This document shows, piece by piece, positions 1,067-61,114 of a stretch of DNA of 64,000 nucleotides. This DNA comes from a virus. The translations under genes were made by a program, and so were the position numbers. The DNA lies in IMG/VR virus record IMGVR_UViG_3300043424_000514, positions 1-64,000 of that record, one strand, 5' to 3'. Below the pieces are notes generated by a model, which ran no database searches, was not told where the DNA came from, and saw only the letters and a program-made list of their open reading frames with translations. Numbering within the stretch: position 1 is the first letter of the stretch; every line of letters begins with the position of its first letter.

Positions 1067-2822
1067 AGCTTTTCGTGAGGTTCGCTTCGGCTCCGACGGG
1101 GAGATCGGCGCACCAGTCGGGTGCGGTTGCCATGATGGATTCGATGTCCTTGAGGGCGTCATCCGCTTTGTCCTCATCGACGAGGCAGACGACTTCGTCG
1201 TGGATTCGCATGATGACTTCGTAGCCCTTGCGATCGAGTTCCGACACGCGATCCATGAAGATGTCGCGGGCAAAAGCCTGCGTGAGGTTTTCGGCGAGGA
1301 GTCCGCCATAGAGCTTGCTCCGCATCATTTTTCCGTTGCGCGGAATCACGCCTGAAAACTCTCCGCGCTCCCCCTTGATCTCGCGGTAAACCAACTCGCG
1401 CCCCCGCGGGAGACGCACATTGAGGGTCGCTCCTGCACTTTTCTCCAACGCAGCTTGCAGCTTGCGCCAAAGGGTCACGATTCTTGGGTTCGAGGCGCGG
1501 TAGTCGGCGACAATGCGCTCCGCCTCGGCAGGCGCGATTTCCAGCCCCGCCATCATCTTTGCGACGACCTGGAATTTCTTAGCCCCACACCCAAAGCCGA
1601 GCCCTAGCACACGGGCCTTGGCGAGTTGGCGCATCGACTTGTCCACCTCTTTGAGCGGGCGCAAGTCGGAGTAGCCCATCGTGGCGCGAGCGTGTGCCTC
1701 GTAAACATCAACGCCAGTCCGCAAAAGATCGAGCGTCGCGTGGTCGCCAGCAAGCCACAGGATGCAGCGGGCTTCGATTTGCGCGAGGTCACAAACGACG
1801 AGCATCTTGCCCTCGGGCGCTTCGATCATCGAGCGGATGTCCACGCCAGAGACGATGTCCCTAGGGAGGTTCTGGGCGTTCCAGCCGCCACTGCCCGAGT
1901 CGCGCCCTGTAGTCGCGCCAAAGTATTTCAGGTCGTAACCCATCCTCCCGTCGGGGCGGGTGCGGGAGAGCATGGTCTGGATCGTTTTAAGGTGCTTGTT
2001 CGCCTTTCGGTGTTCGCGAATAGCGGATACCCATGGGAACTTGTCCGCGAACTCCTCCTCCCACTGCTGCGCTTGATCTTCTTTTTCGGCGAAGCTGTCG
2101 GGAGCCCAAATCCCCTCGACCGCGCACTGGTCGCGCACCGCATGGAGGCTCAAAGCGGGCCTCGCTGGGTGCCACGGCAACAGGTCGCGGGTTTCGTTGG
2201 AGGTCTGCTCCAAAGTTACGCTCGCATGGAATAATTTTTTGATATTTACCGGCACGCCGCGCATCGTCATTTCGCGGGTCATGCGGGAAATTTCGCGCTC
2301 GTGCTCCGGCCACTTGTCGCCGTGCCGGAGCCAAAGGTTCAAAGTGTTCTCTGCATCGCCGATCGCGTATTTCTCAACCTCGGCGCGGAAGTCCGCATCC
2401 ATCGTCTCCCAGCGTTTCCCCTTCATCTTGTCTCGAACATCCTTCGAGACTTCGGTGCCAAGCAGGAAGTGGCTCGCCTCTTTGAGTGAGCGGGGGAACC
2501 CGAGGAACGCCGTCATGTCGGCGGTGTCGAAGATGTCTTTCGCGATCACTAACGGGACGACCCGAGCTTCGATCAGTGCGCCTAGGAGCGTGAGGTCAAA
2601 GGCCGCGTTGTGCATCACCCAAGTTCCTCCGTTCACGCAGGGGCTTCCGTCTGTTGAATCCCACGGAGCACTTTTCGGGTGCCCGACATAACGGAGCCCG
2701 TCGTCTCCAACAATCGAGACGAGGTAGATGTCGGTGGCGCGGGCGTAGTGCCAAGCGCCCATGTCTCCCACGGTGCAGTCCTTGGAGTAGAACGATTCAA
2801 AGTCGATGGCGTAGGTCGGCAT
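1056..2822 (-). CDS. polA: family A DNA polymerase with 3'-5' exonuclease
   Basis: ExoI IDFES, ExoII HNAAFD, ExoIII YAIGD; motif A DLAQIEAR, motif B RQLAKARVLGLGFG, motif C RIHDEVV. Confidence 0.95.
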   Translation of the reverse strand: MPTYAIDFESFYSKDCTVGDMGAWHYARATDIYLVSIVGDDGLRYVGHPKSAPWDSTDGSPCVNGGTWVMHNAAFDLTLLGALIEARVVPLVIAKDIFDTADMTAFLGFPRSLKEASHFLLGTEVSKDVRDKMKGKRWETMDADFRAEVEKYAIGDAENTLNLWLRHGDKWPEHEREISRMTREMTMRGVPVNIKKLFHASVTLEQTSNETRDLLPWHPARPALSLHAVRDQCAVEGIWAPDSFAEKEDQAQQWEEEFADKFPWVSAIREHRKANKHLKTIQTMLSRTRPDGRMGYDLKYFGATTGRDSGSGGWNAQNLPRDIVSGVDIRSMIEAPEGKMLVVCDLAQIEARCILWLAGDHATLDLLRTGVDVYEAHARATMGYSDLRPLKEVDKSMRQLAKARVLGLGFGCGAKKFQVVAKMMAGLEIAPAEAERIVADYRASNPRIVTLWRKLQAALEKSAGATLNVRLPRGRELVYREIKGERGEFSGVIPRNGKMMRSKLYGGLLAENLTQAFARDIFMDRVSELDRKGYEVIMRIHDEVVCLVDEDKADDALKDIESIMATAPDWCADLPVGAEANLTKSYVK

Positions 2823-2834
2823 TCAGAAGTGTTC

Positions 2835-2864
2835 GGGTTGCGAGGTTAATACACCCCGCAACCC
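2835..2864. promoter_or_regulatory. inverted repeat GGGTTGCG/CGCAACCC enclosing a GGTTAATACACC motif variant
   Basis: 8-bp arms at 2835-2842 and 2857-2864, directly upstream of the polymerase start. Confidence 0.45.
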
Positions 2865-2871
2865 TTTTTGT

Positions 2872-3108
2872 TTACTCCTTGTGAGTTAATGCACGGCCAA
2901 GCTCGTGCCCGAAGTTTCCCGCGTTCTCTTCAGAGAACGGCGCAGCCCTTCCGATAGACGCGGCCAAAGCGAGGATTGCTGGGGCCAAGTCTCCGTCAAC
3001 TCCGTCAAACTGAACATTTGCGCGGAGCCAGTTAAAGTCTTCGATGACTGGGTCCATCTCACGCGAGGGTTCGTCAATCATGTAAAGCGAGGTTTGAGGC
3101 TGGTTCAT
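2872..3108 (-). CDS. hypothetical protein
   Basis: ORF 2872..3153; probable ATG at 3108 just after upstream stop. Confidence 0.6.
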   Translation of the reverse strand: MNQPQTSLYMIDEPSREMDPVIEDFNWLRANVQFDGVDGDLAPAILALAASIGRAAPFSEENAGNFGHELGRALTHKE

Positions 3109-3109
3109 A

Positions 3110-3874
3110 TCAAGCGAGGGTTGAGATGAGTTCCTTTTGAGCCTCGGTGACAAGGCCAGCCGAACGAATGGTCGGCGTCCACCACGACTTGTCGGCTTTT
3201 GTCATAATGACGCTGCCCAAGTCCCACTGCCCGCCCTTCAAGCCGGTAGCGGCAAGGTGGGTGCGGAGGCTGGTTGCGATCGGCACAGCCACGCCGCTGT
3301 AAGCGGTCGAAGCGAAGGTCGCCACGGCGCGGGTGTAGCGGGTGCCATCCGAAGCGATGTTGTAGAACAACGGTTCGGCGTCATCGCTGATGTCATCCAT
3401 CGCTTGAATCAAGAACTCAACCGTGGCGATCTCGGAGAAGAATCCGGCACCGCGGGTCCAGTGGACTTGACCACCGGCTTCGCGCACCTCGGAGGCGCTG
3501 TTAAAGAGCCTCGCGGGGTTCTGCTCGCGGTCGTCGTATGGGATATTCTCTTGATACTGCTTCATCATTTGAAGCGCGATGACGCGCATGGGAACGCCCT
3601 TCTTCTTGTCAGTAGGGTCGATTTTGGAAATCGCGTGTTGCTTGTCGAGAACCCAAGTGCCAGGGCTGAACTGGTCAGCGAGGACACCCGTTTTATTGAC
3701 AAGGTTGATGCGCGGGAGGCGTGTGTCTGAGGCACTCCAGTCGCCGACCAGTCCCTTCTCCGCGAGCGCGGTGGTGGTTGTGATGTTGGCGAGGGCGTTG
3801 CTCTCGGGTTTCGTGGTCGCGAGTTGTTTGGACTCGGTTGTCGTGGTGGTTTCGTCGAATGTTATTGTTGCCAT
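3110..3874 (-). CDS. putative single-stranded DNA-binding protein
   Basis: 254 aa between nuclease and polymerase; DTRLPRINLVNK N-terminal motif and aromatic C-terminus as in phage SSB-like proteins (inference). Confidence 0.5.
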   Translation of the reverse strand: MATITFDETTTTTESKQLATTKPESNALANITTTTALAEKGLVGDWSASDTRLPRINLVNKTGVLADQFSPGTWVLDKQHAISKIDPTDKKKGVPMRVIALQMMKQYQENIPYDDREQNPARLFNSASEVREAGGQVHWTRGAGFFSEIATVEFLIQAMDDISDDAEPLFYNIASDGTRYTRAVATFASTAYSGVAVPIATSLRTHLAATGLKGGQWDLGSVIMTKADKSWWTPTIRSAGLVTEAQKELISTLA

Positions 3875-3942
3875 TTTTGGTATTTTTCGGTTTTGGTTTT
3901 TGCTCTGGGGTGGGGGTTAGACCTTATGAGGTTATTACTCGT

Positions 3943-6321
3943 TCAAAAGTTTTTTGATTTTTTTAAGAACGAGATCGTGCCCTCGACTTTCGCTGCGTTG
4001 GCGTCGATCAGCTTGTCGCGTAGAGCCGCTTTGGCTTTAGCCATTTGCCCACGCTCCGCGGTGCGGGAGTAGGCTTTTTCCAACTCGCCGATTTTTAGTT
4101 TGGCGCAGGCCGCAAAAGCCTCCGGCGTGATTTTTTCTTTCACGACTTCCCAAGCGGCTTGCGGATCGGTGATCTCAAACGCGCTGCTCCGTTCGGCGAG
4201 TTCCCACCCTGGAATTTCCACGCCCGAGAGGCGAAGCTCCAAGGCCCGCGCATCCACTTTCTCAGCCCAGCCTTTGAGGATGGGAGCGAGCTTTTTGGCG
4301 AGTGCCATTTTCTCGGGATCGGTGATGACCGCAGGGTCGTATTCAGGTGGTAGCGCGAGTTCTTCCGGCTGATACTTGCTGGCGATCGTGAGCGCGAGGC
4401 TGTTGAGCTTGTGGCACTGTGCGCGGTTATTACACCAAGCGCAGTGACCGCCTGTCTGGTAGCTTGCGGGGTCGTTTCGTTTGGCGGCGGCGACGATGGC
4501 AGTGACCGCAGCGACAAGCCGGTCGTAATCCGCATCGCGAGTCCACTCCACGACATCAATGATGCCCTGGAAGGGGAGCAACACATGAACAGTTATTTTG
4601 TTTATGTTGGGGTGTGCATCCCAAATTCCGACGCTGTAAGCCCAAAATTGAGGCGAATCCGCTTCATATTTCCCCCATGCGAACTTGTAATCAACCAATT
4701 CGGCGGTGTCACCGTGAAGCATGATGTGGTCGATGTGCCCGAACTGATCGAGCACGATGTAGCGCCGTTCCCGAATTTCCTCCAGCCCTGCTCCGCACTT
4801 CTCGCGAAGCTGCCGGAGGTATTGCAGGCAGAGCCCCGCGCATTTGCGAAGGAACTCGTCATCGGCGGGGATGACATCGAGGTTCTCTTTTTCGATCGCG
4901 AGGTGCCCTAGGGTGCCGCGGTCAGCAGCGGTGGTGTCTCGCGTGTTGTCGTTGCGAAAGCCTGGGCATTTCGCTTTTTCTTTGAGTGACGACGGAGAAT
5001 GCTCCGCGTGTTCTTTTTCTGTTGGTGCCGCCGCGATCGACACCTCTGCTATGTCGCGGTTGGTTTCCTTTGTCATAATTCCTTCGTTCAAAATTTGCTG
5101 ATTCTCGCGCTTGTGGCGTGTGAGGTGCAGAGCGGCCTGCTCGACTGTTCCTGGCGCGTAAAGGCGCAGCGCCAGAGCGCGGTTTTTCGCCCCGACCCGC
5201 CGCACTCTCCCGATCGCTTGTTCCTCCGCGGTGCCTGAAAATTGCGGGCAAAGAAGGGCCGTGCGTGGCGCGTTACCGTGCGTGTCGTGGAGGTCGATGG
5301 ATTGACCTCCGGCACCGATTTGAACAACGAGACAGCGCAGCACATTGGCCTGAAATCTATCGCGGCTTGCCTGTCGCAATTCCTGCGACACCCTCCCGTC
5401 AATCGTCTCGCTCATCTCCCCCAGCAATGCGGCGGCTTTGTCGATCGACTCGTGGAAATTGAGAAACAACACAACGCTCCCGCCTTCTTCGACGATCTCT
5501 TTCGCTCGCTCCACGAGGTAGGGGACTTTGATGAGTTCGATCGCTTGGCGTTGCCGGAGGTTCTTCACCGCAGCGGGGTCTTCAATGTCGATCATCTCCG
5601 AGTAGAGTTTGAGGATTTCGTCGCGGTCCTCGCTCGAAAGATGGATCGGCTCATCGCAGAGCCGGAGTTCGGGGAGTTGGTCAGACAGCACGGCATCCAA
5701 GGTGCGGTTGCCGCGACTCGTAAAAATGGAATGGTGCAGATGCTCCATGCGGAGCTTGTTCTCGGGAGTCTTCGGGTCCCATTCTAGACCGCCCCAGCGC
5801 CCGTTCTCAGCCCCCATCTTTCGCACCCAGCCCCAGAACGCCCTAGGGTGAAACAAGCCGAGCTTCGCCCCGATCGCTTTCATGCGAAGCGGGCTCTCCG
5901 CTGCGGTTGCCGAGAGCATCAGCACGCGGTAGGGAGCGGCTTCGAGCATCTTGCTGTTCGTGCTTTTGTAGCCTGCGAAAACATGAACTTCGTCCACGAC
6001 CAGGAGGAGCGTTTCAGGAGTCCACTTAAAATCTTTGCCTGACTTTTTGACCCATGGGGTGTTTCCCGCACGGAGCTTTTCAGGGTTTTCGACAAACACC
6101 GGCTCGATGCCGAACGCCTCCAGAGTAGCTTGCCACTTGGCTTTAACGCTCTTGGGGCAGACGACCCCTACGGGGAGACCGTAGCGACGGGCTGTTTCGC
6201 AGGCGATGATTGTCTTGCCGCCCCCGCAGCCGGTCGCCTCCAGCGAGGCTCCGTTGGCGTCGAGACTCGCGAGGTTTTTCTCCACCGCGTCTTGCTGGAA
6301 TGGGTAGAGGGAAAACTTCAT
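3943..6321 (-). CDS. SF2 helicase fused to Cas4-like/DUF2800 PD-(D/E)XK nuclease
   Basis: Walker A GCGGGKT, DEVH, SAT, QAIGRVRR; C-terminal HSPSS..CPG, RGTLGH, GHID, VDYK, QFWAY, CAWC..C. Confidence 0.85.
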   Translation of the reverse strand: MKFSLYPFQQDAVEKNLASLDANGASLEATGCGGGKTIIACETARRYGLPVGVVCPKSVKAKWQATLEAFGIEPVFVENPEKLRAGNTPWVKKSGKDFKWTPETLLLVVDEVHVFAGYKSTNSKMLEAAPYRVLMLSATAAESPLRMKAIGAKLGLFHPRAFWGWVRKMGAENGRWGGLEWDPKTPENKLRMEHLHHSIFTSRGNRTLDAVLSDQLPELRLCDEPIHLSSEDRDEILKLYSEMIDIEDPAAVKNLRQRQAIELIKVPYLVERAKEIVEEGGSVVLFLNFHESIDKAAALLGEMSETIDGRVSQELRQASRDRFQANVLRCLVVQIGAGGQSIDLHDTHGNAPRTALLCPQFSGTAEEQAIGRVRRVGAKNRALALRLYAPGTVEQAALHLTRHKRENQQILNEGIMTKETNRDIAEVSIAAAPTEKEHAEHSPSSLKEKAKCPGFRNDNTRDTTAADRGTLGHLAIEKENLDVIPADDEFLRKCAGLCLQYLRQLREKCGAGLEEIRERRYIVLDQFGHIDHIMLHGDTAELVDYKFAWGKYEADSPQFWAYSVGIWDAHPNINKITVHVLLPFQGIIDVVEWTRDADYDRLVAAVTAIVAAAKRNDPASYQTGGHCAWCNNRAQCHKLNSLALTIASKYQPEELALPPEYDPAVITDPEKMALAKKLAPILKGWAEKVDARALELRLSGVEIPGWELAERSSAFEITDPQAAWEVVKEKITPEAFAACAKLKIGELEKAYSRTAERGQMAKAKAALRDKLIDANAAKVEGTISFLKKSKNF

Positions 6322-6614
6322 TCCTCCTCGAAGCCTGCAATCTGGGCGGCACAGCGGGCATAGCCCGCAATGTCCACATAGGAATCGCGAGTTGGCGTGT
6401 AAACAGCCCGTGCGATTTTGAGGAGAATCATCAGGTGAGCCACATCCAACGGCGAAAGCTGGGCATTCGGGTCTTTTCGGGCCTGAATATAGGCATTCCA
6501 GTGGGCCGCGATTCGCTCGTGGTTGGGCGTCGCTTTGTCGTAATCGCGGCGACGATCGCCGGTCGTCACTTCAATGGCGGTTTGAAGAATCGAGGTTGTG
6601 TGGTTATTACTCAT
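6318..6614 (-). CDS. DUF6378-like protein (putative nucleotide diphosphohydrolase)
   Basis: GDRRRDY...ERIAAHWNAY...MILLKIAR...DSYVDIAGYA signature. Confidence 0.8.
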   Translation of the reverse strand: MSNNHTTSILQTAIEVTTGDRRRDYDKATPNHERIAAHWNAYIQARKDPNAQLSPLDVAHLMILLKIARAVYTPTRDSYVDIAGYARCAAQIAGFEEE

Positions 6615-7559: not shown

Positions 7560-7656
7560 ATACGGTTATATTATTTTTATTTTGATGGTTTGGTTATTAC
7601 ACGCCCTGGGGAGAAAGTGTTGAAATGGAGTGAAGTTCTGAGGGGAACGCTTGTTT

Positions 7657-7947
7657 TTACTTCGAGAGCTTTTTGTGAAGAACCTTGGCAAGCTCGATGA
7701 TCTTCGGGTCCATCCCGTCTTTAGCGCGTTCTCTTGGCGAATCGCTTTGCATGGTGAGGGATTTTTTGGCTTGCTCAAGGAAGACCCCACTCGGGTCTTC
7801 TTTTTCTAGGTATTGTTCGGTTGCTTGACGCATTAAGGCGCTAATTGAAACGCTTTTATATGCGGCCATAATTTTTAAGGCGTAGTGGACCTCGTTGCTT
7901 TCAACATACGAGACGCGACTTGTTCCTTCTTTTAGTTGGTTAGGCAT
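7657..7947 (-). CDS. ribbon-helix-helix-like regulator (candidate repressor)
   Basis: RVSYVES..HYALKIMAAYKSVSISALMRQATEQYL; SD GAAAGGA upstream; next to integrase. Confidence 0.6.
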   Translation of the reverse strand: MPNQLKEGTSRVSYVESNEVHYALKIMAAYKSVSISALMRQATEQYLEKEDPSGVFLEQAKKSLTMQSDSPRERAKDGMDPKIIELAKVLHKKLSK

Positions 7948-8005: not shown

Positions 8006-9211
8006 TCACCAAGTTAATAACCCGTCAAGTTTATTTTCCCTCGCATACCTCCGAACCCGTTCGGGGGTTATTGAAAACCAACCTTCTGCGCTGACTTTTG
8101 AGACGAGGGCTTTGTAGTGTTTATTGAGCATGGCGGGAGAGTTCCCCGCAATTTCCGCTGTCATCGCGGCGTTCCGGTGCAGAGCCAGGTGGTATGAGCA
8201 GAACGAGTGCCGCAGTGCGTTTTGTTTGGTCTCCACCCCGCAGGCTTTCAATCGAGCTTCATCGAGACTCTCGATTTTGTGTGTCGGGACGATAGGCCCT
8301 GCCTGCGGCCCGAACTCTTTCAGCCATTGCTTGAGGCACTCGGGGATGTCCAGAGTCCGCCCAGTGCGGGTTTTTGTGATTTCAGGGCCGAGGCGGATCA
8401 TTTTTTCGTCGAACAAGACATCAGCCATCGTGAGTTTTTTGTTCGAGGCTTCGGAGCGTCTTGTTCCTCCGAACGCCATCAGCGCCACATATGGCAGATA
8501 TTTTCTGTCAGTCGCGATGAAGAGGCGGCAAAGCTCCGGTGGGGTGTAGAACACCGGCGTCTCGTCGCGCAGAGCGGGAAGGTCGCAGTCGATATTGACT
8601 TTGTCCTCGGAAACAAACCGCTGTTTTCTTGCGAACCGAAGCATCGCCAAGAGCGTCCCGAACAAATTGTGCTTCGACCTCGCGTTGTATTTTGAGGCTC
8701 TCAGGAAGGCCAGGTATTCTTCGGGCGCAATCGTGTCGATGTGCCGCTTGCCGAACTCCGGCTCCCATACATTCCGGTGGTGGCGTAGCGTCTGGTAGTA
8801 ACGCTGCGAAAGTCCTCGCTCCTCGGCGCGGGCGTAGAACGCATCATAGACCTCGGAAAAACTTTTGGGATTCGCCGAAGTGTATTCGTGGAATTTCAAG
8901 TAGAACTCGACCGCGACATGGAGCGGGATTTTGCCGAGGCGTTGGCGGCACTCGTTGAAATAAACGATGTCTTCCCCGCAGAGCATCGTGGCTGCTCCGT
9001 CGCTAGTCGCGAGATGTTTCACGATTCGCTCCGCCTCTATCATAGCCGCGGCTTCTTTGTTGTAGGATTTGTTGTAGGTCTTCTTGCCTACTTTCCATTT
9101 TAGGCGGTGCGTTGTGTATCCGTTGCGAAGCAGTTTTGAGATTCTCACTACGGCGTGTCCGCAGCGCATGACCGAGTTTTTTTCGTCGATGTTTTCAATT
9201 TGGGTTTTCAT
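8006..9211 (-). CDS. int: tyrosine recombinase / integrase
   Basis: GTRRSE (R), TKTR (K), NALRHSF (HxxR-like), AGNS, KHY (Y); 401 aa. Confidence 0.9.
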   Translation of the reverse strand: MKTQIENIDEKNSVMRCGHAVVRISKLLRNGYTTHRLKWKVGKKTYNKSYNKEAAAMIEAERIVKHLATSDGAATMLCGEDIVYFNECRQRLGKIPLHVAVEFYLKFHEYTSANPKSFSEVYDAFYARAEERGLSQRYYQTLRHHRNVWEPEFGKRHIDTIAPEEYLAFLRASKYNARSKHNLFGTLLAMLRFARKQRFVSEDKVNIDCDLPALRDETPVFYTPPELCRLFIATDRKYLPYVALMAFGGTRRSEASNKKLTMADVLFDEKMIRLGPEITKTRTGRTLDIPECLKQWLKEFGPQAGPIVPTHKIESLDEARLKACGVETKQNALRHSFCSYHLALHRNAAMTAEIAGNSPAMLNKHYKALVSKVSAEGWFSITPERVRRYARENKLDGLLTW

Positions 9212-11608: not shown

Positions 11609-11609
11609 T

Positions 11610-12907: not shown

Positions 12908-12942
12908 TTTTTCGCTTGTTTGATGTAATAACCACATAACCC

Positions 12943-20264: not shown

Positions 20265-20434
20265 AAATAGTAAACATCGTCATCGAACGACTCAGTGAAA
20301 ATTCCACCTGGCGCGGGCTCATCCTCGTCGTCACCGCCCTAGGGCTCCGTTTGGAGCCAGAGCTTCAGAATCAGATCGTTGCGGCGGGCCTCTCACTCGT
20401 CGGCCTCATCAACATCGTTCGCAAGGGTAAGTGA
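20261..20434 (+). CDS. holin
   Basis: 57 aa, ERLSENSTWRG, two hydrophobic segments, basic tail, abuts endolysin. Confidence 0.7.
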   Translation: MKIVNIVIERLSENSTWRGLILVVTALGLRLEPELQNQIVAAGLSLVGLINIVRKGK

Positions 20435-48000: not shown

Positions 48001-51000
48001 GAGAATCCAAACATCCTATACTCCGCCCCAGGGCGGCGGTCGAATGTGACCAGGATGCTCCTAGGGAAAAAAGAGGGGACGACTTACACCGGCAAGAAGG
48101 TGGAGACCGGTGGCTGGTTCGCCTCCGACGCCTTGGCGACGGATGGAGTGACCGCGATGTTCGATCGCAAGACGAACCGCGAGTCCTTCGGCAAGCAGCA
48201 GGCCGAATTTTATGACAAGGCCCTGGGCAGGGCGCTGAAGAAATACGAGGGCCAGTTCAACCCCAAAGATGTCAACGACGCCCTGGGGAATATCGAAAAC
48301 CCGCTCACCGAGGCGCAGGCCAGGGAGATCGACGAACTCGTGGCGACCAACCAAGAGGCGGATGCCGCCGTGCTGAAGAACGATTACATGGAGGCTAACC
48401 GCGCCGACTTCCGCAGGCGGCAGGCCGAGGCCCGCAAGCGTCTGCCCGAGGAGGTCGTGAAGATCATCGAGGAGATGCGCGACACGGTCGATCCGCTCAG
48501 TAGCTACGCCGACGAGAAGATGGGCTTCTCGACCGCCGCCAACCAAGGAATCTACCTGAACCGCGCTTACCTGATTTTCGGGGACGAGAAGACAAGAGAG
48601 CTTCACCAAAAACAAATCCGCGAGAACCCTGTGGTGATGGAGAACCTAAAGAACTACCTCTCCCGACAACTCGCGGAGCAGGACGCCGAGGCTTTGATCC
48701 GCCGAGCCACCCGCGAAGGGCGAATCCTCCCTAGGGAAGAAGCCTTGGTCCAAGCCACCGCCAATTTGTCGCCGACAGATTTGGGCGCGGCGATCGAGCG
48801 CGTGCTCAATGCGGGGGATAAAGGAGTCGGCTCCTTGTTTGTCTCGGGGCGCATCCCTGGGCAAAAGAACCTGAAAATCTTTGATGCCCGCGGCAACATC
48901 GCCAAGGAAATCCAAGCGGCCTGGGGCGTGGTCGAAGACCCTGGCACGAACTACGCGAACACCGTCATCAAGCTCGCGAACCTGGTCGCCAACGACAAGT
49001 TCTTGCAAGAACTCAAGGCGGCGGGGCTGGAGTCGGGCACGCTCTACGACCCTAGGGACCCGAAGAACCTGAACGAGGAGGACGGGCAACGACTCGCTGA
49101 CGCCCGCTCGGCGGCTCTGGAGGCCGATCCGACACTGGCGGCGCGGTCGCGCTTCAAGCCAGAGTTGCTCGATCGGGCAATGATCGCCCAAGACCCTGTG
49201 GTGGCGAGCATCCTCGAACAGGCTGAAAGCAAAGTCCCTTCAAAATATGTAAAGCTATCCAGCGAGACGAACAAATCGTTCGCTCCCGTCTCGGGTATGT
49301 ATGCGGAGCCGCTCTTGTTCGAGTGGTTGACCACGAAGTTCCCGCCGAGGGGCGAGGAGAGTTGGTGGATGAAAGCCCTTACGCAGGCAACGCTCGTCCC
49401 TATGGCGATGAAGACCGTAGGCAGCGTGACAGGGCAATTCCGAAACTACTACTCGGGCTATATGTCGCTGCTTTCTAATAGCAACTTGAGGTTTTGGGAC
49501 CCTGAGTGGCGGGAGGATTTCAAAGCCGCGCACCGCATGACCTTCGGAGAAATCTATCGGGATGTGCGGGGAATCTCTACCGATGCCACAGCTCGCAAGG
49601 CGATGATGAAAGCCCGCGAAAGGCTTTCGGAGTTGGGAGTGACCGGCCAATCCGTGACGATGAACTTCATGCAGGACTTGGCGCGGCTGAACTCTGGCAA
49701 GGAGAACGGCATCGTCAAAGGAATCGACGGGCTGGTTCAGAAATTCATCCAGACCTACGGAGCATCGGACGACAATTTCAAAATCATCCACTACTTCAGC
49801 GAGCTTGGCAAATACCGCAGGGCGTTCCCTGATATGCCGCAGGCACAGCTTGAGGAAAAAGCCGCCGCGATCGCCCGCGGGATTCATCAAACTTACGGAG
49901 ACACTTACTCGGCGGTGAAGTCGTTGAAGAAAGTTCCGTTCATCGCGCCGTTCATCAGCTTCACCTCGGAGGTGATTCGCAATACGATTTATTCAGGGCG
50001 CTTGGCGTGGAACGAAGTCAAAGAAGGCCGTGCCACAGGGAATCGGGAACTCGAACGAATCGGGCTCCAAAGATTCGCCGGAATGAGCATTGCGGGCTTT
50101 GGCACCTTTGCATTGACGAGCATCAGCGCATCTCTTGTAGGGATCAGCGGCGAGGAGGAGCGGGAGTTCCGAAAGCTGCTGCCGGAGTGGCAGCGCAACA
50201 GCCAACTTCTTTTCACAGGGAAAGAAAACGGGAAGATTAGATTCGCTGATTTCAGTTTTAGTGACCCGCTATCGTATCTGAAAACCCCTGCGATCGCTTT
50301 TAGCAGAGAAATCTGGAGCGGCGACGAACGCTCGTTCAACGAGAAAGTCGGTAAGGGAATTCTAAACGCCATGCAAACCCTCGCGTCTCCGTTCGTCTCG
50401 GAGCAGTTGTTCTCGGGTTCTTTGATGCAGCTTTACTCGAACAAGGACGGATCAGGCAGGGAGATCGTGAACTGGCAAGACGACCCCGCCGCGATTGCAG
50501 GGGCGGTAGGAGGGCACCTAATCCAGCCATTCCTGCCAGGAACATTCGACTCCCTAGGGCGCATTGGCAAAGCCTTTACCGGCTATGTCAGCCCGAGCGG
50601 TCGCTCCTATGACAAGGGGAACGAAATTATGAGCTTCTTCGGAGCGCGTATCTCCGAGGTGGATGTGCGCCAATCCCTAGGGTTCAAGACCAAGGCGTTC
50701 ATGCAGAACTACCGCGAGGCGGCAGAACTGTTCACAGGGCCGTTCTTGTCCCGCGGCACGCAGGATAGCGAGAGCATCGTGGAAGGATACGAAAGCGCCA
50801 ACAGCGCGGTTCAGCGGTTGTTCGGAGAACTGCGGGGAATCTACCTCGGGGCGGTTCGACTCGGCGTTCCTCAACGGGAAGTCCTCTCGATCCTCAAGGC
50901 AAACGGACTTTCAGAAGAAAATCTCGCGATGCTTCGCAGCGGCAAGTTCAAGCCCTACCAAGCCAGCAAGCAGGCAATCACAAAGAACAGGGAGGCGGGG

Positions 51001-51057
51001 ATGCAAACCCGAATCTCAGACTACAACAAAGCGTATGCGGCGGCTCAAAGACCCTAA
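39091..51057 (+). CDS. giant polyvalent internal virion (ejection) protein, 3988 aa
   Basis: hydrophobic Gly-rich N-terminus, long coiled coils, zincin-like EEMDH, WGR-like domain, collagen linker, ART-like domain, LPD38-like C-terminus. Confidence 0.85.
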   Translation: MIIPYDQVEGYENYTPTLNEEEDKENLVPISSVPMKMREDLSLGEEFGRGFDRGLLQTKGLGLGLVGALGEAAGLDDVEEYGYTGAQEAMQAASAPELAGEVESIFDVGSPGDFMSYAAGLMGSQVPNLAISAVTGGVGGMVGKRAVSAAITEALEAKTAQLVGEGVAKEVAKRQAQVALSREMGVNMAEKLAAEKAAQIAATKTGIGVGTAVSGVGMEVGSIYSETRDLGLAVKYGVPAGLVEGIADRYFGGKIVDAIEGTSGTKGLKAAGKEFVKGIGVEGGEEGVQTALELQALEESGVEPGFELFSKEGAKRVTEGVAAGAVMGGGMATGVQGLKLGLTPLTQRALQDVETGLPPGTETPGTEQQDTTDEEKFYNFSPDAVTIDDGDDDPITARRFTIGTEKGWAIDNPTEEMQRRLVPLGNTGKVALVDGGKGYGDALKHILNNGGRVRNIDPSILDNEIADDDGEYVGLSSFTQDNKLAAGTGQQQGKVQGTDLEIDAEQRAFEDQLISKYGQLNNVLNATELLESTGAMPQGSFTGSEREALGGGLNQDERNAILAAVPSRELTKSKAQVERLIRETEEAAAKEGTTPELERRLNFLADVQGRIADFENLKTMQQTLGRKPLEGGAAGELSAGVSKTDPVEEKLAEWSRIVEERGKVDTEISSLQKLTAPSGGGSIFDALDAYEMMLSDSQKVSQEIAALKKAKADKNQIQAKMQELRNIEESARGLISESGNQDLFANEVRKQVVVEERNNSAAYKAWDALVQEADALQAERDTLVTEEDIKNFDESSKGKKLETIAQKIDKAYEQVVPTARLAEFYKNAAKVATAKRDEQRQVDQASQEQRLAAENNLKSATEKSRGLNTDVVYKTPDGNTVVGTLVPDPETGRALDQNGNLVIAPKSFEGSDKSDLVDTRTQYGDRFIRVPRENVLNIVPDKTVGVKTQAASQAKALGVENADQNSLAQNATAIAAKLNEQSEAREKELENSLEPVFTRDNKGKLVPSAVRRGETVGLRLEGREALHKTMYLPDGTTLVPTNAGIFRGVEGAGVDQRVVFDRYYVAKPKGAKAPTATNTVSLPVLRPGETLITLNDLSDEQKTSTGITRAKGGKWRTSELVSEDLWDNLYKAPKAAVFGTAKTPVGGVLAPTQKPTRSGTRMTQTPSVAETESGDLELQDVFTFEGDLTDAERILTTALGKFSATPTREELISAGFTPTNEKAEFEVARGKYALEEVQDVTIKDPLSGSGLDIPVKAGVFKDSKNPDAPAQVKLYAQFDLSKVYAAMEELEAKRKAPDTAQKNANIVRAEQSLAREVQDLQRLTLAQMNMGLDVRVREINGVPEAQFLSDYGFVASRNARASGNKGAFGNHIITEVTYNPNPDFKKGGDTFRRKAQSPRQTQQQAAATLTNTTLRGRGFDFKKTGLGSANQILGNFRRQMLDRAQEAKEKEAEAIESGSDLAARHAEALVKLTAFTRPMFERYAVPIRKHIEEAPGSTPEFKDRWRMQTELFLARELNKTQLRAMPDSVAAEMQKQIETKKRNADKIEPVRGKRRVKKKGKNYGQLVDDPYQSERQFKIRRREWQQKLDSEIAEIEEKFFRQMLPRATRGNTGVSEVNRLTKEIEDKKTAIRQSVAATKIKEKPSAEEIKKQISADSEVKKLTASFQQAKGDAAKKRWKTKLEARKAQIENNAIVERDPTEGEIETETRNRVQKDQDIYNLERKIEKLGEFTTAQDAMIDEFLGFIQAEAEKSGNQNQKALTENLRRLLARKEEAAKGGRKVFINVRKEVEKSESFADRQLQKQIKAEAKKLEATDERVKELKEKLKNAKPGNVLQLEKKLRLRKEALLEEAEYRLSKQGLFIGQNDQKAAESEELLDSAAKAMDSAQISGNDRMFEGAAQNFADRQQANEAEKFSDADRAIVEAFGKMMDEVKTLNIFGTTGRVKGILRQGFNEASKFKGAIEKQEFVDPQTGKAADAGSDLVQGMIRGQEDPLAFENYREPRKKDDAKRQEYLEDLAALKLRELAREANDKTKGDVDPNIVELALVKLFGGKFEGEVEGNYINETFEPLAKEYADVMEDFFAGTTARKEQQRIAEIEAARGKGERSTLTKEELEPLRKESSRISKIAFGVIENYLFNPNTKRTLSGKSLPTTEKVSLGIPGAPLASAPGANGTDVAQSNKNATAQPDRNPTREGSKAAVQSFVQGYAGLTDSDMVGLDDREIDAIYQAATSKADADMAAGAVDSVVAATPGMNALLEMSGKDLMRGYLRELEAEQTRGDAETILRENLRRAATTKMFKSNTDFLEYVSKMPQGIKRAAALRAKEFLKLNEQRGFNWNKIATQIAAFGKDGKQATWAGLLGTDMETGGHAIFLNLDQIHEGDIVETMLEEMDHALTHRIINAEAFGMKLNSVQQSARDRLRTDFKRAVLKAGEGMTELAEGARGLTPEQKVAFYSNAFKDMVAESPDQFRAYYNLTNLDEFVVGIKKDGSFIDLLKELGFSEKAEGGFSISQLLKDIFTSLAELVTGRRLDANSELARAFSDAWTLSTGRDAKQWTVPPTQLSMALGVEAASTSKATGSNETVRMRKDGGTAVYNAYLQQNEDGSWSVFGEFGDPTRKLQRAEKSKGKLDYEQAKAVFDKTVEAKSKKYSVIPEGPEGPQGPTGPNEGPQGPQGPQGPQGPAVTPRAQRTPGEYGRSFLPQSAPGRRSNVTRFNELTADLQGRNLTQTDLDAWKNANPEKYAELEKMREDAIKSSASNNGQKVFGPLWHISSETGLSENRFDPNKIGSQTDSGYLARGFYFAGSEDEARNSVGLQTSRSGKAYRVFVGFKNPLEVTLQSNSVGNWQYNDANKSVIEQLAKIVTPQKWNEFLTKYNYSAEELKELGLRPPSEIKNRDLSFYNFSLNAYNELFNFLGIDGIVTKLKNGAPFEVVGLSTVKNPTFNPNQIKSAEPLNLENGRLIPPTEWAQPENPNILYSAPGRRSNVTRMLLGKKEGTTYTGKKVETGGWFASDALATDGVTAMFDRKTNRESFGKQQAEFYDKALGRALKKYEGQFNPKDVNDALGNIENPLTEAQAREIDELVATNQEADAAVLKNDYMEANRADFRRRQAEARKRLPEEVVKIIEEMRDTVDPLSSYADEKMGFSTAANQGIYLNRAYLIFGDEKTRELHQKQIRENPVVMENLKNYLSRQLAEQDAEALIRRATREGRILPREEALVQATANLSPTDLGAAIERVLNAGDKGVGSLFVSGRIPGQKNLKIFDARGNIAKEIQAAWGVVEDPGTNYANTVIKLANLVANDKFLQELKAAGLESGTLYDPRDPKNLNEEDGQRLADARSAALEADPTLAARSRFKPELLDRAMIAQDPVVASILEQAESKVPSKYVKLSSETNKSFAPVSGMYAEPLLFEWLTTKFPPRGEESWWMKALTQATLVPMAMKTVGSVTGQFRNYYSGYMSLLSNSNLRFWDPEWREDFKAAHRMTFGEIYRDVRGISTDATARKAMMKARERLSELGVTGQSVTMNFMQDLARLNSGKENGIVKGIDGLVQKFIQTYGASDDNFKIIHYFSELGKYRRAFPDMPQAQLEEKAAAIARGIHQTYGDTYSAVKSLKKVPFIAPFISFTSEVIRNTIYSGRLAWNEVKEGRATGNRELERIGLQRFAGMSIAGFGTFALTSISASLVGISGEEEREFRKLLPEWQRNSQLLFTGKENGKIRFADFSFSDPLSYLKTPAIAFSREIWSGDERSFNEKVGKGILNAMQTLASPFVSEQLFSGSLMQLYSNKDGSGREIVNWQDDPAAIAGAVGGHLIQPFLPGTFDSLGRIGKAFTGYVSPSGRSYDKGNEIMSFFGARISEVDVRQSLGFKTKAFMQNYREAAELFTGPFLSRGTQDSESIVEGYESANSAVQRLFGELRGIYLGAVRLGVPQREVLSILKANGLSEENLAMLRSGKFKPYQASKQAITKNREAGMQTRISDYNKAYAAAQRP
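47197..48054 (+). repeat. 33-bp perfect direct repeat flanking ART-like domain
   Basis: TCCGCCCCAGGGCGGCGGTCGAATGTGACCAGG at 47197-47229 and 48022-48054. Confidence 0.95.
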
Positions 51058-51259
51058 CCTATGGCCCCCTGGGGGCTGGCAATTTGAAGAACTTTGCACC
51101 GGCTGTAAGTTCCGCGGCAACTCGCTGGCCGACCTAGCCGAGAAGGTGCGCCTCCACAGGGAATCCAACGCCCTAGGGCGGGAGGACCTGGCGCTGGAGG
51201 ACATCCAAGAACAGATCATCCTGCGAGCGCCGGAAGAATTCGACGGCTGGGAGGAGTAG
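51035..51259 (+). CDS. hypothetical protein
   Basis: 74 aa, PPGGWQF motif, overlaps end of giant gene. Confidence 0.65.
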   Translation: MRRLKDPNLWPPGGWQFEELCTGCKFRGNSLADLAEKVRLHRESNALGREDLALEDIQEQIILRAPEEFDGWEE

Positions 51260-54647: not shown

Positions 54648-56261
54648 TTATGCTTTTACTGAACGCAACAACCTCACAAGCGCATCGGCCAGCCCCCACA
54701 GGCTTTCGCGGCTGATGTAATAATCGAAGTGCTCCTTCAAGTTCTTCGTCCGGTCGATGGAAGAACAGCACAGGCCGAGGGTTTGCAGCCCCCGCTCGCG
54801 CAGCGCAGCGCGGTCGATCGGGTTATCGGTGATCTCGCCGTCGGTGTAGATGATGGCGAGCCTGTCCTTGGACACCTCGTCGAAGCAGTTCTTCGAGGTC
54901 TTGCGGTGGGCGGGGCTGGGGCTCAAGGCCAGACCGAACCCCTCGGCTGAACTCCAACCGCGGGCCAACTGCGCTTGCGCGTAGCTCTTGATGGGCAACT
55001 CCGTCTTGTAGTTCACGCCGCCCTCGGAGCAGAAGTAGGCCGTGCATTTGATCTTCTTCTTGCCTGCGAGGATCGACAGCGCCATGAGCAAGACGCGGCC
55101 TGCACGATCGGTCGGGAGCGAGGTCGTCTTCTCCCGATCAACGAAGCAGTTGTAATACGCCATCGAGCCCGAGCAGTCGATGAGCAAAGACAAATGCGGG
55201 ACGCCGTTGTTGCCGATGACCTTGCCGATGTAGGGCAGGTCGTAGCATTTGCGGAGGATCGCCCGCAGGTTGAGCTTGGAGGTCGGTCGGCTGGTCGCCC
55301 CCTTGGTGGTGCCCACCCCCTTGAAGGCGGTGGCAAGCATTCGGGCGAGGCGGACGGCGAGGTAGTGCTCCCGCTTCTGGTCGTCTCCACTGACGCCTGA
55401 CAGCGACTCTTCCTCGGAGAGGGAGGACAGGGTTCCGTGGGCCTTCATCTCCTCCCCTTTGCTGGTGCCTGTCGTCTCGCCTTCCTCGTCGCCTGGCTTC
55501 TTGGGGACATGGAGCACGGCTTCACCGCAAGCAGTCATAGCGTCCTTGAGGTCGCCGGTGCCGAGCCCGCCCGCTTTCTCGATCGAGTCGTCGCTGGTGC
55601 GAGGGAACTCTTTGAGCCAGTCGATTAGCACGGGGATCAAATTCTCGGTGCTAGAAGTCCTGCGAATGCGGTTGAAGTATTTCAAAACCGTATCGAAGAA
55701 CGGTAGCACTCGGAAGGTCGCCTGAAACTTTCGGGACAACTTGCGGGAGAATCCCGAGCAGTCGTTCTTCATCCAGTAGAGCAGCGCCGAGGGTGTGACT
55801 TTCGAGATGTCCTCGGGATACTTCTCCCAAGTCATCCACTTGAAGGCCCGCCTGCGGAGGCGGGACCAGATGGTCTCGATGCGGATGTCCTCGAAGAGGT
55901 TCATCAAACGCCAAGGGATGTTGTGTTTCTTGAGCGCATCGTTGAGTTCCTTGAGGTTCTTGGTGGTGAAGCGGGAGTGCGCCGCCTCGTGCTCATAGAC
56001 CTCGGTGAACAGCTTGGGCACCGACCGGCGAACGCCGCTCCCTAGGGAGGGGGTGGCGATCGTATCGTAGGCCAGAGGCGAGATCATAATCTCATGCTTC
56101 TTGGTGTCGTGGTTGTAGGTCCAGCACCCCGTCTTGCAGGGGTGGGACGGCGGGAGAACTCCGAGCGAGTAAGCCTCGGTCAGGGTTCCCTTGGAGCGGA
56201 GCTTGATGTGAGCCGCTTCGACGAGCGAGCGGATGTGTGTGGTCAGTTTGATCTTGGACAT
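54648..56261 (-). CDS. CobT-like VWA protein with N-terminal HExxH domain
   Basis: HEAAH, NLFEDIRIE, MIDAS DCSGS, YTDGE. Confidence 0.85.
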   Translation of the reverse strand: MSKIKLTTHIRSLVEAAHIKLRSKGTLTEAYSLGVLPPSHPCKTGCWTYNHDTKKHEIMISPLAYDTIATPSLGSGVRRSVPKLFTEVYEHEAAHSRFTTKNLKELNDALKKHNIPWRLMNLFEDIRIETIWSRLRRRAFKWMTWEKYPEDISKVTPSALLYWMKNDCSGFSRKLSRKFQATFRVLPFFDTVLKYFNRIRRTSSTENLIPVLIDWLKEFPRTSDDSIEKAGGLGTGDLKDAMTACGEAVLHVPKKPGDEEGETTGTSKGEEMKAHGTLSSLSEEESLSGVSGDDQKREHYLAVRLARMLATAFKGVGTTKGATSRPTSKLNLRAILRKCYDLPYIGKVIGNNGVPHLSLLIDCSGSMAYYNCFVDREKTTSLPTDRAGRVLLMALSILAGKKKIKCTAYFCSEGGVNYKTELPIKSYAQAQLARGWSSAEGFGLALSPSPAHRKTSKNCFDEVSKDRLAIIYTDGEITDNPIDRAALRERGLQTLGLCCSSIDRTKNLKEHFDYYISRESLWGLADALVRLLRSVKA

Positions 56262-59505: not shown

Positions 59506-59913
59506 TTACTCGTAACGAGGGGCTGATTCTTTGCTGTTGTCTGATTGCCCTGGGGAGGATTCGACTGTGACCCACAGGTCTCCGCCATCGCTCCACCCTA
59601 GGGGGATATACCCCTCGTCATGGTAGGCGGTGTCGATGTCGGGCAGGTTAGCCATGGCAGCATGGCGGGACGGGGCCTCGGCGCGGTTGGCCTTGGCGAC
59701 AAGGGCCTTGGCTACTTCGAGCCACTTCTCGGCGACGCTGCGGGTGGCAAAGGGGACGGTGCCGTGAAGGGCGTTCACGGTATACCACCACCCGCCTTCT
59801 TCTGGCCCGCCGTAGCAGCGTTCTCTCCGATACACGGAGACCCAAGCGGGGCTGGCTTGCTCGAATTCGGTGTGGGCTTCGATCTTTTCTACGAGTTGTT
59901 CGATGAGGTTCAT
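59506..59913 (-). CDS. conserved phage hypothetical protein
   Basis: YGGPEEGGWWY motif, ends PRYE. Confidence 0.75.
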   Translation of the reverse strand: MNLIEQLVEKIEAHTEFEQASPAWVSVYRRERCYGGPEEGGWWYTVNALHGTVPFATRSVAEKWLEVAKALVAKANRAEAPSRHAAMANLPDIDTAYHDEGYIPLGWSDGGDLWVTVESSPGQSDNSKESAPRYE

Positions 59914-59939: not shown

Positions 59940-60128
59940 TTACTTGGATGCTTTTGCGATGCGATAAAGGAGTATCTCGCGCAAGGTCGATCCCCTAGGG
60001 AGGTCTCGCACGAACTCAAACGCACGGCTTAACTCCTCGACGCTGGGTAAAGGGGCGTCGTGCGACAGGTGGTTGGCGACATTGATGTGACCAGCCTCAA
60101 TGAGCAATGGTATGTGTGGGTGTTTCAT
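59940..60128 (-). CDS. hypothetical protein
   Basis: start MKHPHIP at 60128 after SD. Confidence 0.65.
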   Translation of the reverse strand: MKHPHIPLLIEAGHINVANHLSHDAPLPSVEELSRAFEFVRDLPRGSTLREILLYRIAKASK

Positions 60129-60151
60129 TTGTTTCCTTTCTTGGTTGGTTA

Positions 60152-60448
60152 TTACTCTTCGTTTTCTGCGGCTTCCTCTGCGGTGCGCCAGCATTCTTCG
60201 TAGTAGGTGTTGTTGTCGTGCCGCTCCTTGGTAGCCAGATGACCGAGGTGGTTACAGAAGTGGTGCGGCGGGCCGATAATGATCCACTCGGAGCCGTCGT
60301 CTCCTTCGGATGTTGTGACTGACCATATCTGGTCGTCGTCAAAGCCTGCGTCTTTGGCTTCCTTCCAACTTTGGAAGTAGTCTCCGTCTGGTCGCCGGAT
60401 TTCTTCATAGGGGAAGTCGCAATCAAAGCAGATGTTCATTGGTTTCAT
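60152..60448 (-). CDS. hypothetical protein
   Basis: start MKPMN at 60448 after SD; QIWSV...HFCN.LG. Confidence 0.7.
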   Translation of the reverse strand: MKPMNICFDCDFPYEEIRRPDGDYFQSWKEAKDAGFDDDQIWSVTTSEGDDGSEWIIIGPPHHFCNHLGHLATKERHDNNTYYEECWRTAEEAAENEE

Positions 60449-60467
60449 TTGGTTGTTTCCTTTCTTG

Positions 60468-60722
60468 TTATCCTTCAACGATTCGGAAGTCGTCGGCATC
60501 TTGCCAGTAGGGTTGGAAGACCAAGTCCTGCCAGAAGGGGCTGTCCCAAACACCGCACTCAAAAGAGTCTTCACACTCATCGAGTTCCTTGGCGACCGCT
60601 TGCTCGGCGGCGGCTTGGGACTCGGCTTCGATCTCGATCTCGGCGTAGGCCGGAACGGTTACTGCTACGGTTACTTTGTATTTTTTAGGTGCCCAAATAG
60701 TTTCTATTTTATCGAGTTGCAT
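60468..60722 (-). CDS. hypothetical protein
   Basis: KKYKVTV...IEIEAES..AAE pattern; SD present. Confidence 0.7.
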   Translation of the reverse strand: MQLDKIETIWAPKKYKVTVAVTVPAYAEIEIEAESQAAAEQAVAKELDECEDSFECGVWDSPFWQDLVFQPYWQDADDFRIVEG

Positions 60723-60741
60723 ATTGGTTAGTTTCCTTTCT

Positions 60742-60999
60742 TTAGTTTGCTGCGTCTCTAACTCGATCCCAGTTCGTGCCGTAGTTGGCGTCGAAGTAGT
60801 GATCTAGGTTGTCTGCGGTTGCGATATGGGCAGGATCGTTCCAGTCAACGGGGTCGGGTGAGGCGTCCCCATCCTCATCGACGGAGAAATCCTCTGGAGT
60901 CCAAGCCTCCAGATAGACCATCGGATACTTCGCTCGGAAGACTTTGAGGTCTTCGTAGAAGGTGTCGGCGGGGTTGTTGGGTTTGGTTTTCTTGCTCAT
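60742..60999 (-). CDS. hypothetical protein
   Basis: acidic ORF, FDANYGTNWD. Confidence 0.7.
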   Translation of the reverse strand: MSKKTKPNNPADTFYEDLKVFRAKYPMVYLEAWTPEDFSVDEDGDASPDPVDWNDPAHIATADNLDHYFDANYGTNWDRVRDAAN

Positions 61000-61114
61000 T
61001 GGTTTGTTCTTTCTATTGTTGGTTGTTGATGTGGATGTTCTGGAGGGAACAAAGGGTTTCTGTTATTCGATAACAGGCTCCCTAGGGAACGAGGTTACTC
61101 TCCCTAGGGAGGGG

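Follow-up and report, generated by a model that had tools for sequence, protein, structure and literature searches.

A highly iterated 8-bp palindrome in a clade of lake phages: a possible DNA-level tag

The DNA analyzed here, in the following called the window, comprises bases 1–64000 of the 72,870-bp IMG/VR virus record IMGVR_UViG_3300043424_000514 (G000), in which the palindromic octamer CCCTAGGG occurs again and again within and between genes. Highly iterated palindromes (HIPs) of this kind have been known in cyanobacterial chromosomes for decades, without agreed function or origin. G000, in turn, is a virus record with phage genes and not a cyanobacterial chromosome; it is recorded as linear, and CheckV puts its completeness at an estimated 100%. 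Its gene products include a family-A DNA polymerase, a helicase-exonuclease, a tyrosine recombinase, tail-fibre-like proteins, a Holliday-junction resolvase, an M15 endolysin, an exonuclease, a small HNH protein and a DUF5906 primase-helicase. Genes were called by a heuristic of our own, which uses codon log-odds and to which four open reading frames (ORFs) were added by hand. A first-pass annotation of the window had claimed 25 copies of CCCTAGGG, all of which are present exactly where it had placed them:

1859–1866, DNA polymerase gene, frame 2; retained by close relatives only
4906–4913, helicase-exonuclease gene, frame 1 (Thr-Leu-Gly); same letters in 10 of the 12 clade members that align here, at about 74% nucleotide identity
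5841–5848, helicase-exonuclease gene, frame 2
14084–14091, tail-fibre-like gene, frame 2; unchanged across all aligned subclade members
17220–17227, within a gene, frame 1; unchanged across all aligned subclade members
20337–20344, intergenic; reads CCCTGGGG in L290, L305 and G091
21003–21010, end of the endolysin gene, frame 2; replaced by CCCCAGGG in L289 (97.8% identical) and G091
22851–22858, intergenic; TA/TG polymorphic among relatives
29927–29934, intergenic, in a GC-rich inverted repeat after a 443-amino-acid gene; kept in all aligned relatives, including the 72%-identical ones
33927–33934, within a gene, frame 1
36410–36417, within a gene, frame 1
39215–39222, 3988-amino-acid gene, frame 1
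40358–40365, 3988-amino-acid gene, frame 1
40958–40965, 3988-amino-acid gene, frame 1
46787–46794, 3988-amino-acid gene, frame 1
48729–48736, 3988-amino-acid gene, frame 2
49050–49057, 3988-amino-acid gene, frame 2
50552–50559, 3988-amino-acid gene, frame 1
50675–50682, 3988-amino-acid gene, frame 1
51171–51178, small gene, frame 1
56040–56047, 537-amino-acid gene (minus strand), frame 1
59596–59603, small early gene (minus strand), frame 1
59993–60000, intergenic
61080–61109, intergenic, two copies 22 bp apart that flank a promoter-like element, a degenerate AGAGTAACC on the minus strand

By comparison, 100 dinucleotide-preserving shuffles of the window contain 0.61 copies on average and at most 3. 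The whole record holds 28 copies, i.e. about one per 3 kb, and no octamer is more frequent in the genome than CCCTAGGG, whose observed-to-expected ratio (O/E) is 45 under an order-3 Markov model; the cyanobacterial HIP1 word GCGATCGC is not among the top octamers. A maximum-order Markov model, with 52 copies expected and 56 observed on both strands, only appears to explain the count, because the 7-mers within the word are enriched for the same reason. Within genes, 19 copies are observed, as opposed to 0.47 (standard deviation 0.65, maximum 3) in 500 synonymous-codon shuffles, and codon usage thus does not explain the count. The hexamer CTAGGG is preceded by CC in 28 of 36 cases, and CCTAGG outside the 8-mer is found as often as expected (10 copies vs about 9); hence, the octamer is the unit. 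Dicodon bias is excluded as a cause by the same 28 of 36 hexamers along with the nine intergenic copies of the record. The Markov and codon-shuffle statistics proposed as a check in the first-pass annotation thus leave the excess unaccounted for by lower-order k-mer, codon or dicodon bias. Outside CCCTAGGG, CTAG is depleted (about 55 copies vs about 112 expected). The density of the word is alike in the early and structural regions.

Hereby, the word is largely indifferent to the coding frame. Considering genes on both strands, 13 copies of the record lie in frame 1, 6 in frame 2 and 9 are intergenic, with frame 0 unused because a TAG stop would arise. The proteome has 40 (S/P/T/A)-Leu-Gly tripeptides, 13 of which are encoded as CCCTAGGG, and 30 x-Pro-Arg-(V/A/D/E/G) peptides, of which 6 are so encoded. 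In line with an earlier remark on rare codons, the former 13 copies use CTA (6.6% of Leu codons) and the latter six use AGG (9% of Arg codons). At the amino-acid level the proteome is little bent, with 40 (S/P/T/A)LG vs 35.4 and 33 PR(V/A/D/E/G) vs 20.6 (z 2.9). Just outside the octamer there is a symmetric T/A preference, the extended form TCCCTAGGGA occurring 7 times (O/E 224). Further out than positions −1 and +1, the 28 copies have unrelated flanks, and a dispersed repeat similar to repetitive extragenic palindromic sequences or miniature inverted-repeat transposable elements was discarded, as the copies share no extended flanks. An RNA hairpin formed by CCCTAGGG was likewise set aside, since its 2-nucleotide loop would not be feasible.

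The variants CCCCAGGG/CCCTGGGG and CCACAGGG/CCCTGTGG, described before as common, are indeed enriched in the record, with 36 sites (O/E 11.7) and 20 sites (O/E 10), respectively. For the class CCCYRGGG, 61 copies are found in the window vs 4.9 in shuffles. Strong enrichment is seen for pyrimidine-purine centers only (TA 45-fold, CA/TG 12-fold), and the CG-centered form is at expectation. About six CCCCAGGG copies are the collagen-like Gly-Pro-Gln-Gly codons of the tail-fibre genes and are unrelated to the word sites. Among subclade genomes of at least 85% identity, 12 alignment columns read CCCTAGGG in at least one genome; 8 of these vary by exactly the central transition and 3 are invariant, changes in the CCC/GGG arms being rare. 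Four variant sites of the focal genome illustrate this:

24175–24182, CCCTGGGG; the column reads CCCTAGGG in G094, L292, L306 and L304
24244–24251, CCCTGGGG; the column reads CCCTAGGG in five less close subclade members
26512–26519, CCCCAGGG; the column reads CCCTAGGG in L291
26910–26917, CCCCAGGG; the column reads CCCTAGGG in L305, L306/G094 and L294

At 24244 and 26910, less close relatives show TA and the focal genome and its nearest kin TG or CA; these are thus derived losses, namely an A-to-G change at 24244 and a T-to-C change at 26910 in the focal line. Judged from such alignments, the variants are mostly former or alternating copies of the same CCCTAGGG sites. Variant enrichment is confined to the focal, higher-GC subclade; in distant, lower-GC clade members the variants are not enriched (O/E 0.97 and 1.17), with CCCTAGGG itself still 18-fold enriched.

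The word is shared by the relatives of the phage. Using the DNA polymerase, 13 related IMG/VR loci with 60–98% amino-acid identity were retrieved, all 13 of which carry CCCTAGGG (42 copies in 195.7 kb), and an 807-amino-acid protein retrieved 19 more loci, 17 of them with the word. Five whole clade records of 29–51 kb hold 10, 4, 12, 14 and 10 copies, i.e. 50 in 196.6 kb, with zero copies of the reversed control word; G347–G350 contain 15, 11, 7 and 10 copies, so that 9 of 9 whole clade records carry CCCTAGGG. The complete genome of the distant relative G346 (72,081 bp) shares core genes at 27–42% amino-acid identity, and has two adjacent copies of CCCTAGGG and no iterated octamer. The word is thus a lineage trait that is restricted to a subclade. 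G346 is too diverged for gene presence or absence to single out the factor behind CCCTAGGG.

To evaluate site conservation, motif sites were compared with frame-matched 8-mers of equal G+C content. Hereby, 8 of 9 motif sites are kept in G094 vs 3.65 expected (p 0.004), 8 of 10 in G091 vs 4.7, 2 of 5 in G093 vs 0.23, 2 of 4 in G095 vs 0.21 and 1 of 3 in G092 vs 0.28, these being small samples and comparisons that share phylogeny and are not independent. Turnover is seen as well: the column at 24065 reads CCCTAGGG in 8 of 9 distant relatives and CCCCCGAG in the focal subclade, and many CCCTAGGG sites of distant relatives sit in DNA that cannot be aligned.

The background on which the word stands is stripped of other palindromes. 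Of 49 palindromic hexamers with an expectation of at least 8, 32 are at zero copies and 6 more at one. TTCGAA (0 vs 32 in shuffles), CTCGAG, GAGCTC, GTCGAC, GGCGCC and CGGCCG are all absent, CCSGG is nearly so (11 copies vs 205 expected, O/E 0.05) and CTNAG is depleted, too. Four-base cores are not avoided, with GATC at 1.09 and TCGA over-represented. CCTAGG is the only enriched 6-bp palindrome (38 vs 9.2). This purge is mostly common to distant clade members, and G346 shares only part of it. One could thus regard CCCTAGGG as a side effect of the purge of palindromes or restriction sites, by which sequence is funneled into the few permitted palindromes; the extent of the purge and the presence of CCTAGG among the roughly ten palindromes left would fit this. 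However, other permitted palindromes are not enriched (CGATCG 1.15, CCGCGG 1.14, CCATGG 0.96, AAATTT 1.2), CCTAGG outside the 8-mer stays at expectation, neither CTA for Leu nor AGG for Arg is needed to avoid purged sites, and neither the intergenic copies nor the 10-bp symmetry would be accounted for. We consider this origin very improbable. As CCTAGG alone is enriched where 32 other palindromes are absent, a positive force is needed.

A candidate for a protein that would read the word is encoded beside the recombinase gene:

7657–7947, minus strand, 96-amino-acid ribbon-helix-helix (RHH)-like protein, putative reader of CCCTAGGG; next to the recombinase gene
8006–9211, minus strand, tyrosine recombinase (integrase-like) gene; PHROG phrog_1 with E 5e-20, nearest Atlas clusters carrying PF00589; immediately upstream of the RHH gene

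Residues R11-V-S-Y-V-E16 of the 96-amino-acid protein are invariant in 11 clade members. Modeled as a homodimer, it scores 0.51, compared to 0.00 for the best control, with residues 10–16 paired antiparallel, contact agreement between runs of at least 88% and a predicted local distance difference test score (pLDDT) of the partner of at least 74. Of the proteins solved as pairs, 20 of 30 attain the mark applied, compared to 1 of 23 of those solved as single chains. Likeness of the model to solved structures may account for this pass, RHH dimers being well known.

We favor the view that CCCTAGGG is a selected DNA-level tag on duplex DNA which is read by a symmetric dimer, and assign to it a probability of roughly 40%, because of the 10-bp symmetry, the constrained arms, the pyrimidine-purine centers, the site conservation, the restriction to a subclade and the survival of the word amid the palindrome purge. 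The word would then be kept where it arises; it does not follow from codon use or from a dispersed repeat. A symmetric dimeric protein would contact the CCC/GGG arms and prefer T and A just outside them, as in TCCCTAGGGA. Its center would need a pyrimidine-purine step, TA being best and CA/TG tolerated, and a CG center would be unavailable because CCSGG is purged from the genome. For the forms TCCCTAGGGA, CCCCAGGG, CCCTGGGG and CCCAAGGG, the order of binding should accordingly be TA > CA/TG >> AA. The dispersed copies would serve a genome-wide purpose, which could be silencing or roadblocking, coating, or self-marking, and the clade-conserved RHH protein beside the integrase-like gene is the candidate reader. 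We infer, rather than observe, that a protein reads CCCTAGGG, which protein this is and what the reading achieves. Binding, packaging and a methylation- or repair-driven origin had been put forward in the first-pass annotation; of this proposal, a DNA-level cause in place of codon or k-mer bias holds up, and packaging was dropped, as nothing points to it.

Several observations speak against a tag that is read by a protein. The spacing of the copies is compatible with random placement, and use of one third of the synonymous opportunities resembles a genome-wide drive more than it resembles useful placement. Continuing biased repair would lead to conservation above background as well. As TA alone is enriched in distant members, the CA/TG forms may represent decay under a GC-ward mutation bias. 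Only one or two of about 24 promoter-like elements (see below) have a copy of CCCTAGGG within 50 bp, so the two are not generally found side by side. For the 96-amino-acid protein, the family assignment is weak: the Pfam match to Antitox_RHH (E 0.014) is below the cut-off, and the PDB profile matches to CopG/ORF56 have E values of 0.075 and 0.11. Its monomer model reaches a pLDDT of 68 and shows no strand, and a Foldseek search with this model returned no match. The link between protein and word rests on co-occurrence in one clade, a distribution that many other genes share. The clusters of the Atlas nearest to the integrase-like protein and the primase are labeled mostly Verrucomicrobiota, which gives a weak lead to this phylum as the putative host. 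Among 251 sampled Verrucomicrobiota genomes none is hyper-iterated, the maximum being 48 copies of CCCTAGGG in 2.5 Mb, with 67 genomes at zero; this speaks for the tag to the extent that the weakly indicated phylum is the host.

A second iterated word is present as well. (T)GTAATAACC, which reads GGTTATTAC on the other strand, occurs 24 times vs 1 expected, for the most part in the short gaps that precede nearly all early genes, where it is followed by a conserved A/C-rich leader CAACAAAGAAAGGAAAC and then by ATG. Examples are located in the window at:

9265, 12926, 16828, 28429, 53501, 56291
57752, 58463, 58888, 59501, 60147, 62317

The GTAATAACC element is conserved in all clade relatives, and from its placement it looks like the promoter plus translation-start cassette of the phage itself. 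At 7592–7611, a CCCTGGGG variant abuts a GTAATAACC element. In a more specific form of the tag hypothesis, the copies of CCCTAGGG would be dispersed operators at which the phage's own repressor blocks transcription across the prophage. The precedent are the stoperators of cluster A mycobacteriophages, reported as "numerous binding sites distributed across the phage genome" (PMC9283540): in the relevant passages of that paper they amount to some 25–30 short sites for one phage protein genome-wide, also outside promoters, an order which the 28 copies found here resemble. A tyrosine recombinase with an adjoining RHH-like gene, the 22-bp-apart pair around the promoter-like element at 61080–61109 and the variant at 7592–7611 fit such operators. 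The same passages describe stoperators as asymmetric, oriented and bound by a monomeric repressor, whereas CCCTAGGG is palindromic and mostly intragenic, 19 of its 28 copies lying inside genes. The scarcity of copies near promoter-like elements argues in the same direction, and a prophage copy was found neither by searching genome contigs with a polymerase profile nor by searching 401 Verrucomicrobiota genomes for the capsid-like protein. Repressor operators of the stoperator kind thus appear improbable to us. Equally doubtful, if more far-reaching, is the idea that these lake phages run an address system of their own, in which the phage RHH dimer would read 25–30 copies of TCCC-YR-GGGA, placed in genes at synonymous positions, as the sole symmetric mark on a purged genome.

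Apart from the phage clade, CCCTAGGG is hyper-iterated in at least a few bacteria. Hymenobacter polaris RP-2-7 (G001, the genome of locus L150), one of the matches listed in a triple-motif scan of species genomes, contains 3302 copies in 5.6 Mb, i.e. one per 1.7 kb, dispersed and in unrelated contexts, compared to 0–117 copies in 80 other Hymenobacteraceae. In a 400-kb sample of this genome (L253–L272), CCCTAGGG is 24-fold, GCCTAGGG 7-fold and CCTAGG 4-fold enriched, the transition variants not being enriched; H. polaris looks like an unreported HIP-like case in Bacteroidota. In two metagenome-assembled genomes (MAGs), one of Porphyromonas with 432 copies in 2 Mb and one of Alloprevotella with 114, part of the copies form tandem arrays of 21–23 bp. 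The proposed search for the motif in candidate hosts thus gives a mixed picture, with hyper-iteration in a few unrelated bacteria and in none of the 251 Verrucomicrobiota genomes.

These findings bear on a second explanation, according to which CCCTAGGG has no function for the phage and is a by-product imposed by the host, where a methyltransferase combined with a mismatch-repair bias, as in Elhai's model for HIP1 and alternate HIPs, or a very-short-patch-like repair, would keep turning near-matches into the word on whatever DNA the host replicates. The pressure acts wherever coding allows, as judged from the 13 of 40 and 6 of 30 peptides, with little amino-acid change and similar density in early and structural regions, and changes at motif sites are concentrated on the central T/C or A/G position. 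Cytosine methylation of the CCWGG type together with T:G repair (Dcm/Vsr) would toggle that central base. The sporadic hyper-iteration in cellular genomes such as H. polaris and the Porphyromonas MAG would fit as well, as it matches the pattern of alternate HIPs, which, in the sections of Elhai (PMC4390886) that deal with them, occur sporadically and are tied to the strain's own methyltransferase. However, no PF00145 (C5), PF01555 (N4/N6) or PF03852 (Vsr) domain was found in the phage, other methyltransferase families not having been searched. H. polaris likewise gave no match to PF00145 and one match to PF01555, whose specificity is unassigned, and neither family was found in the Porphyromonas MAG, which is incomplete; no C5 or N4/N6 methyltransferase shared among the comparator bacteria was found. 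GATC is nearly absent in H. polaris and normal in the phage, and GCCTAGGG, with its different flank preference, has zero copies in the phage. Moreover, none of the sampled Verrucomicrobiota is hyper-iterated, and site conservation of the kind found here is what Xu et al. (PMC5861425), in their argument on this point, take as a sign that HIP1 is selected and not replenished by biased repair. All in all, we regard a host-imposed origin as somewhat less probable than the tag and as its most serious competitor.

H. polaris and the Porphyromonas MAG were rejected as hosts, since their avoidance profiles (GATC, CCSGG, GCGCGC, GAGCTC) differ from that of the phage, as does the profile of the Alloprevotella MAG. 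Searches for a host by other routes gave little. In the mildly enriched Verrucomicrobiota genome G146, the 33 copies are scattered over many contigs, and it thus contains no binned phage. The integrase has many metagenomic relatives, and the more distant integrase P0042 as query retrieved only close clade members. G000 has zero tRNA genes and zero Rfam matches, and there is thus no att-site clue to the host.

Compared to known systems, the closest likeness is to HIP1, the precedent named in the first-pass annotation, and the analogy stands in the respects tested, namely the size of the excess, which surpasses the at least 15-fold over-representation that marks HIP1-like octamers, the occurrence in all permitted frames and between genes, and the conservation of sites. 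As described in the pertinent parts of Elhai 2015 (PMC4390886) and of Xu, Lawrence and Durand 2018 (PMC5861425), HIP1 and alternate HIPs are, like CCCTAGGG, GC-rich 8-bp palindromes in tens-fold excess at about one per 1–4 kb, which lie within and between genes whatever the frame, are conserved above background, are lacking in some related lineages and have no agreed function. Unlike HIP1, CCCTAGGG is located on a phage genome, is a different word with an otherwise depleted CTAG core, comes without a PF00145 or PF01555 methyltransferase in the phage and without hyper-iteration in the sampled genomes of the weakly indicated host phylum, shows central-transition copies in a subclade and stands in a genome from which nearly all other 6-bp palindromes are missing. 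In the searchable literature we found, among the papers listed, no report of CCCTAGGG or of a CCTAGG-centered word as an iterated element in any genome, although supplementary files of the cited papers may list further octamers.

Other systems resemble CCCTAGGG in single features. RHH dimers of the MetJ/Arc/CopG type read a short, often 8-bp, symmetric site via a two-stranded ribbon, and such sites may follow one another at a distance of one or two helical turns, which the 22-bp pair at 61080–61109 resembles. To our knowledge, however, RHH regulons comprise a handful of operators and not, as here, dozens of copies within coding sequence. Chi sites and DNA uptake sequences are short words at about one per few kb with a genome-wide benefit; they lack symmetry, have a strand orientation and also occur in the host chromosome. 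CCCTAGGG is like them in density and unlike them in being a palindrome, and in that sharing was not found in the 251 Verrucomicrobiota genomes.

Compared to the cyanobacterial cases, the phage offers a small genome, graded relatives from 98% down to about 30% identity, including one without the word, a background stripped of other palindromes and a named candidate reader. That CCCTAGGG was amplified independently in at least one Bacteroidota genome is relevant to the question of whether such words originate with a transferable factor. If the address-system idea were true, highly iterated palindromes would be a protein-plus-address device that mobile elements can own, and a 96-amino-acid protein with an 8-bp site would provide a small, tractable model for the 30-year-old HIP1 puzzle.

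Further observations concern the word in other genomes. In a triple-motif scan of species genomes, which were selected for triple motifs without a control word and whose figures hold among the matches listed, tandem CCCTAGGG arrays are seen in many genomes (L133, L159, L162, L163, L166, L171 from the Porphyromonas MAG, L145 from the Alloprevotella MAG, L165 from a Flavobacterium MAG, L229, L237, L239 and others), and these arrays make up most of the matches listed. The histogram of array spacings in this set peaks at 21–23 bp (134 intervals), with spacers that differ between genomes. A paired-motif scan of viral contigs gave mostly chance pairs or one unrelated 30-bp element, and independently recovered the clade members L045 and L037. 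This element, two copies of CCCTAGGG with a fixed 14-nucleotide spacer, is conserved in about 20 unrelated viral contigs of about 42% G+C (L018, L022, L035, L043, L050, L052, L057, L063 and others), two of which encode a DUF6378 protein like that at 6318–6614 of the window. Some Verrucomicrobiota and Planctomycetota genomes (e.g. G099, G285, G088 and G089) contain many copies, up to 551, of the reversed control word GGGATCCC; this word is listed as an alternate HIP of two thermophilic Synechococcus strains in the part of Elhai (PMC4390886) that covers them.

Cultured relatives of the phage were found neither by megablast nor by tblastn of the giant gene nor via the AAA ATPase, and the DNA polymerase shows at most 27% identity to cultured relatives. 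In a search of sequencing runs, near-identical DNA was found in freshwater and lake metagenomes of several studies.

Within the window, the giant gene is a single ORF of 3988 amino acids (39091–51057, plus strand) that contains 8–9 of the 25 window copies of CCCTAGGG. Its product shows a weak match, below the Pfam cut-off, to a "polyvalent protein" ADP-ribosyltransferase (ART-PolyVal, residues 2780–2952), and a search of the viral collection with a 1000-amino-acid segment found no relatives. The tail-fibre-like genes at 11583–15401 (plus strand) carry collagen-like Gly-Pro-Gln-Gly repeats, and this region includes paralogous 255-amino-acid genes at 12140–12907 and 12943–13710. At the record ends, a 1.2-kb segment is present in two copies that are 81.5% identical (window 1–1182 vs record 71698–72870), which may reflect either a wrap-around assembly of a circular or permuted genome via two strain variants or a diverged terminal duplication.

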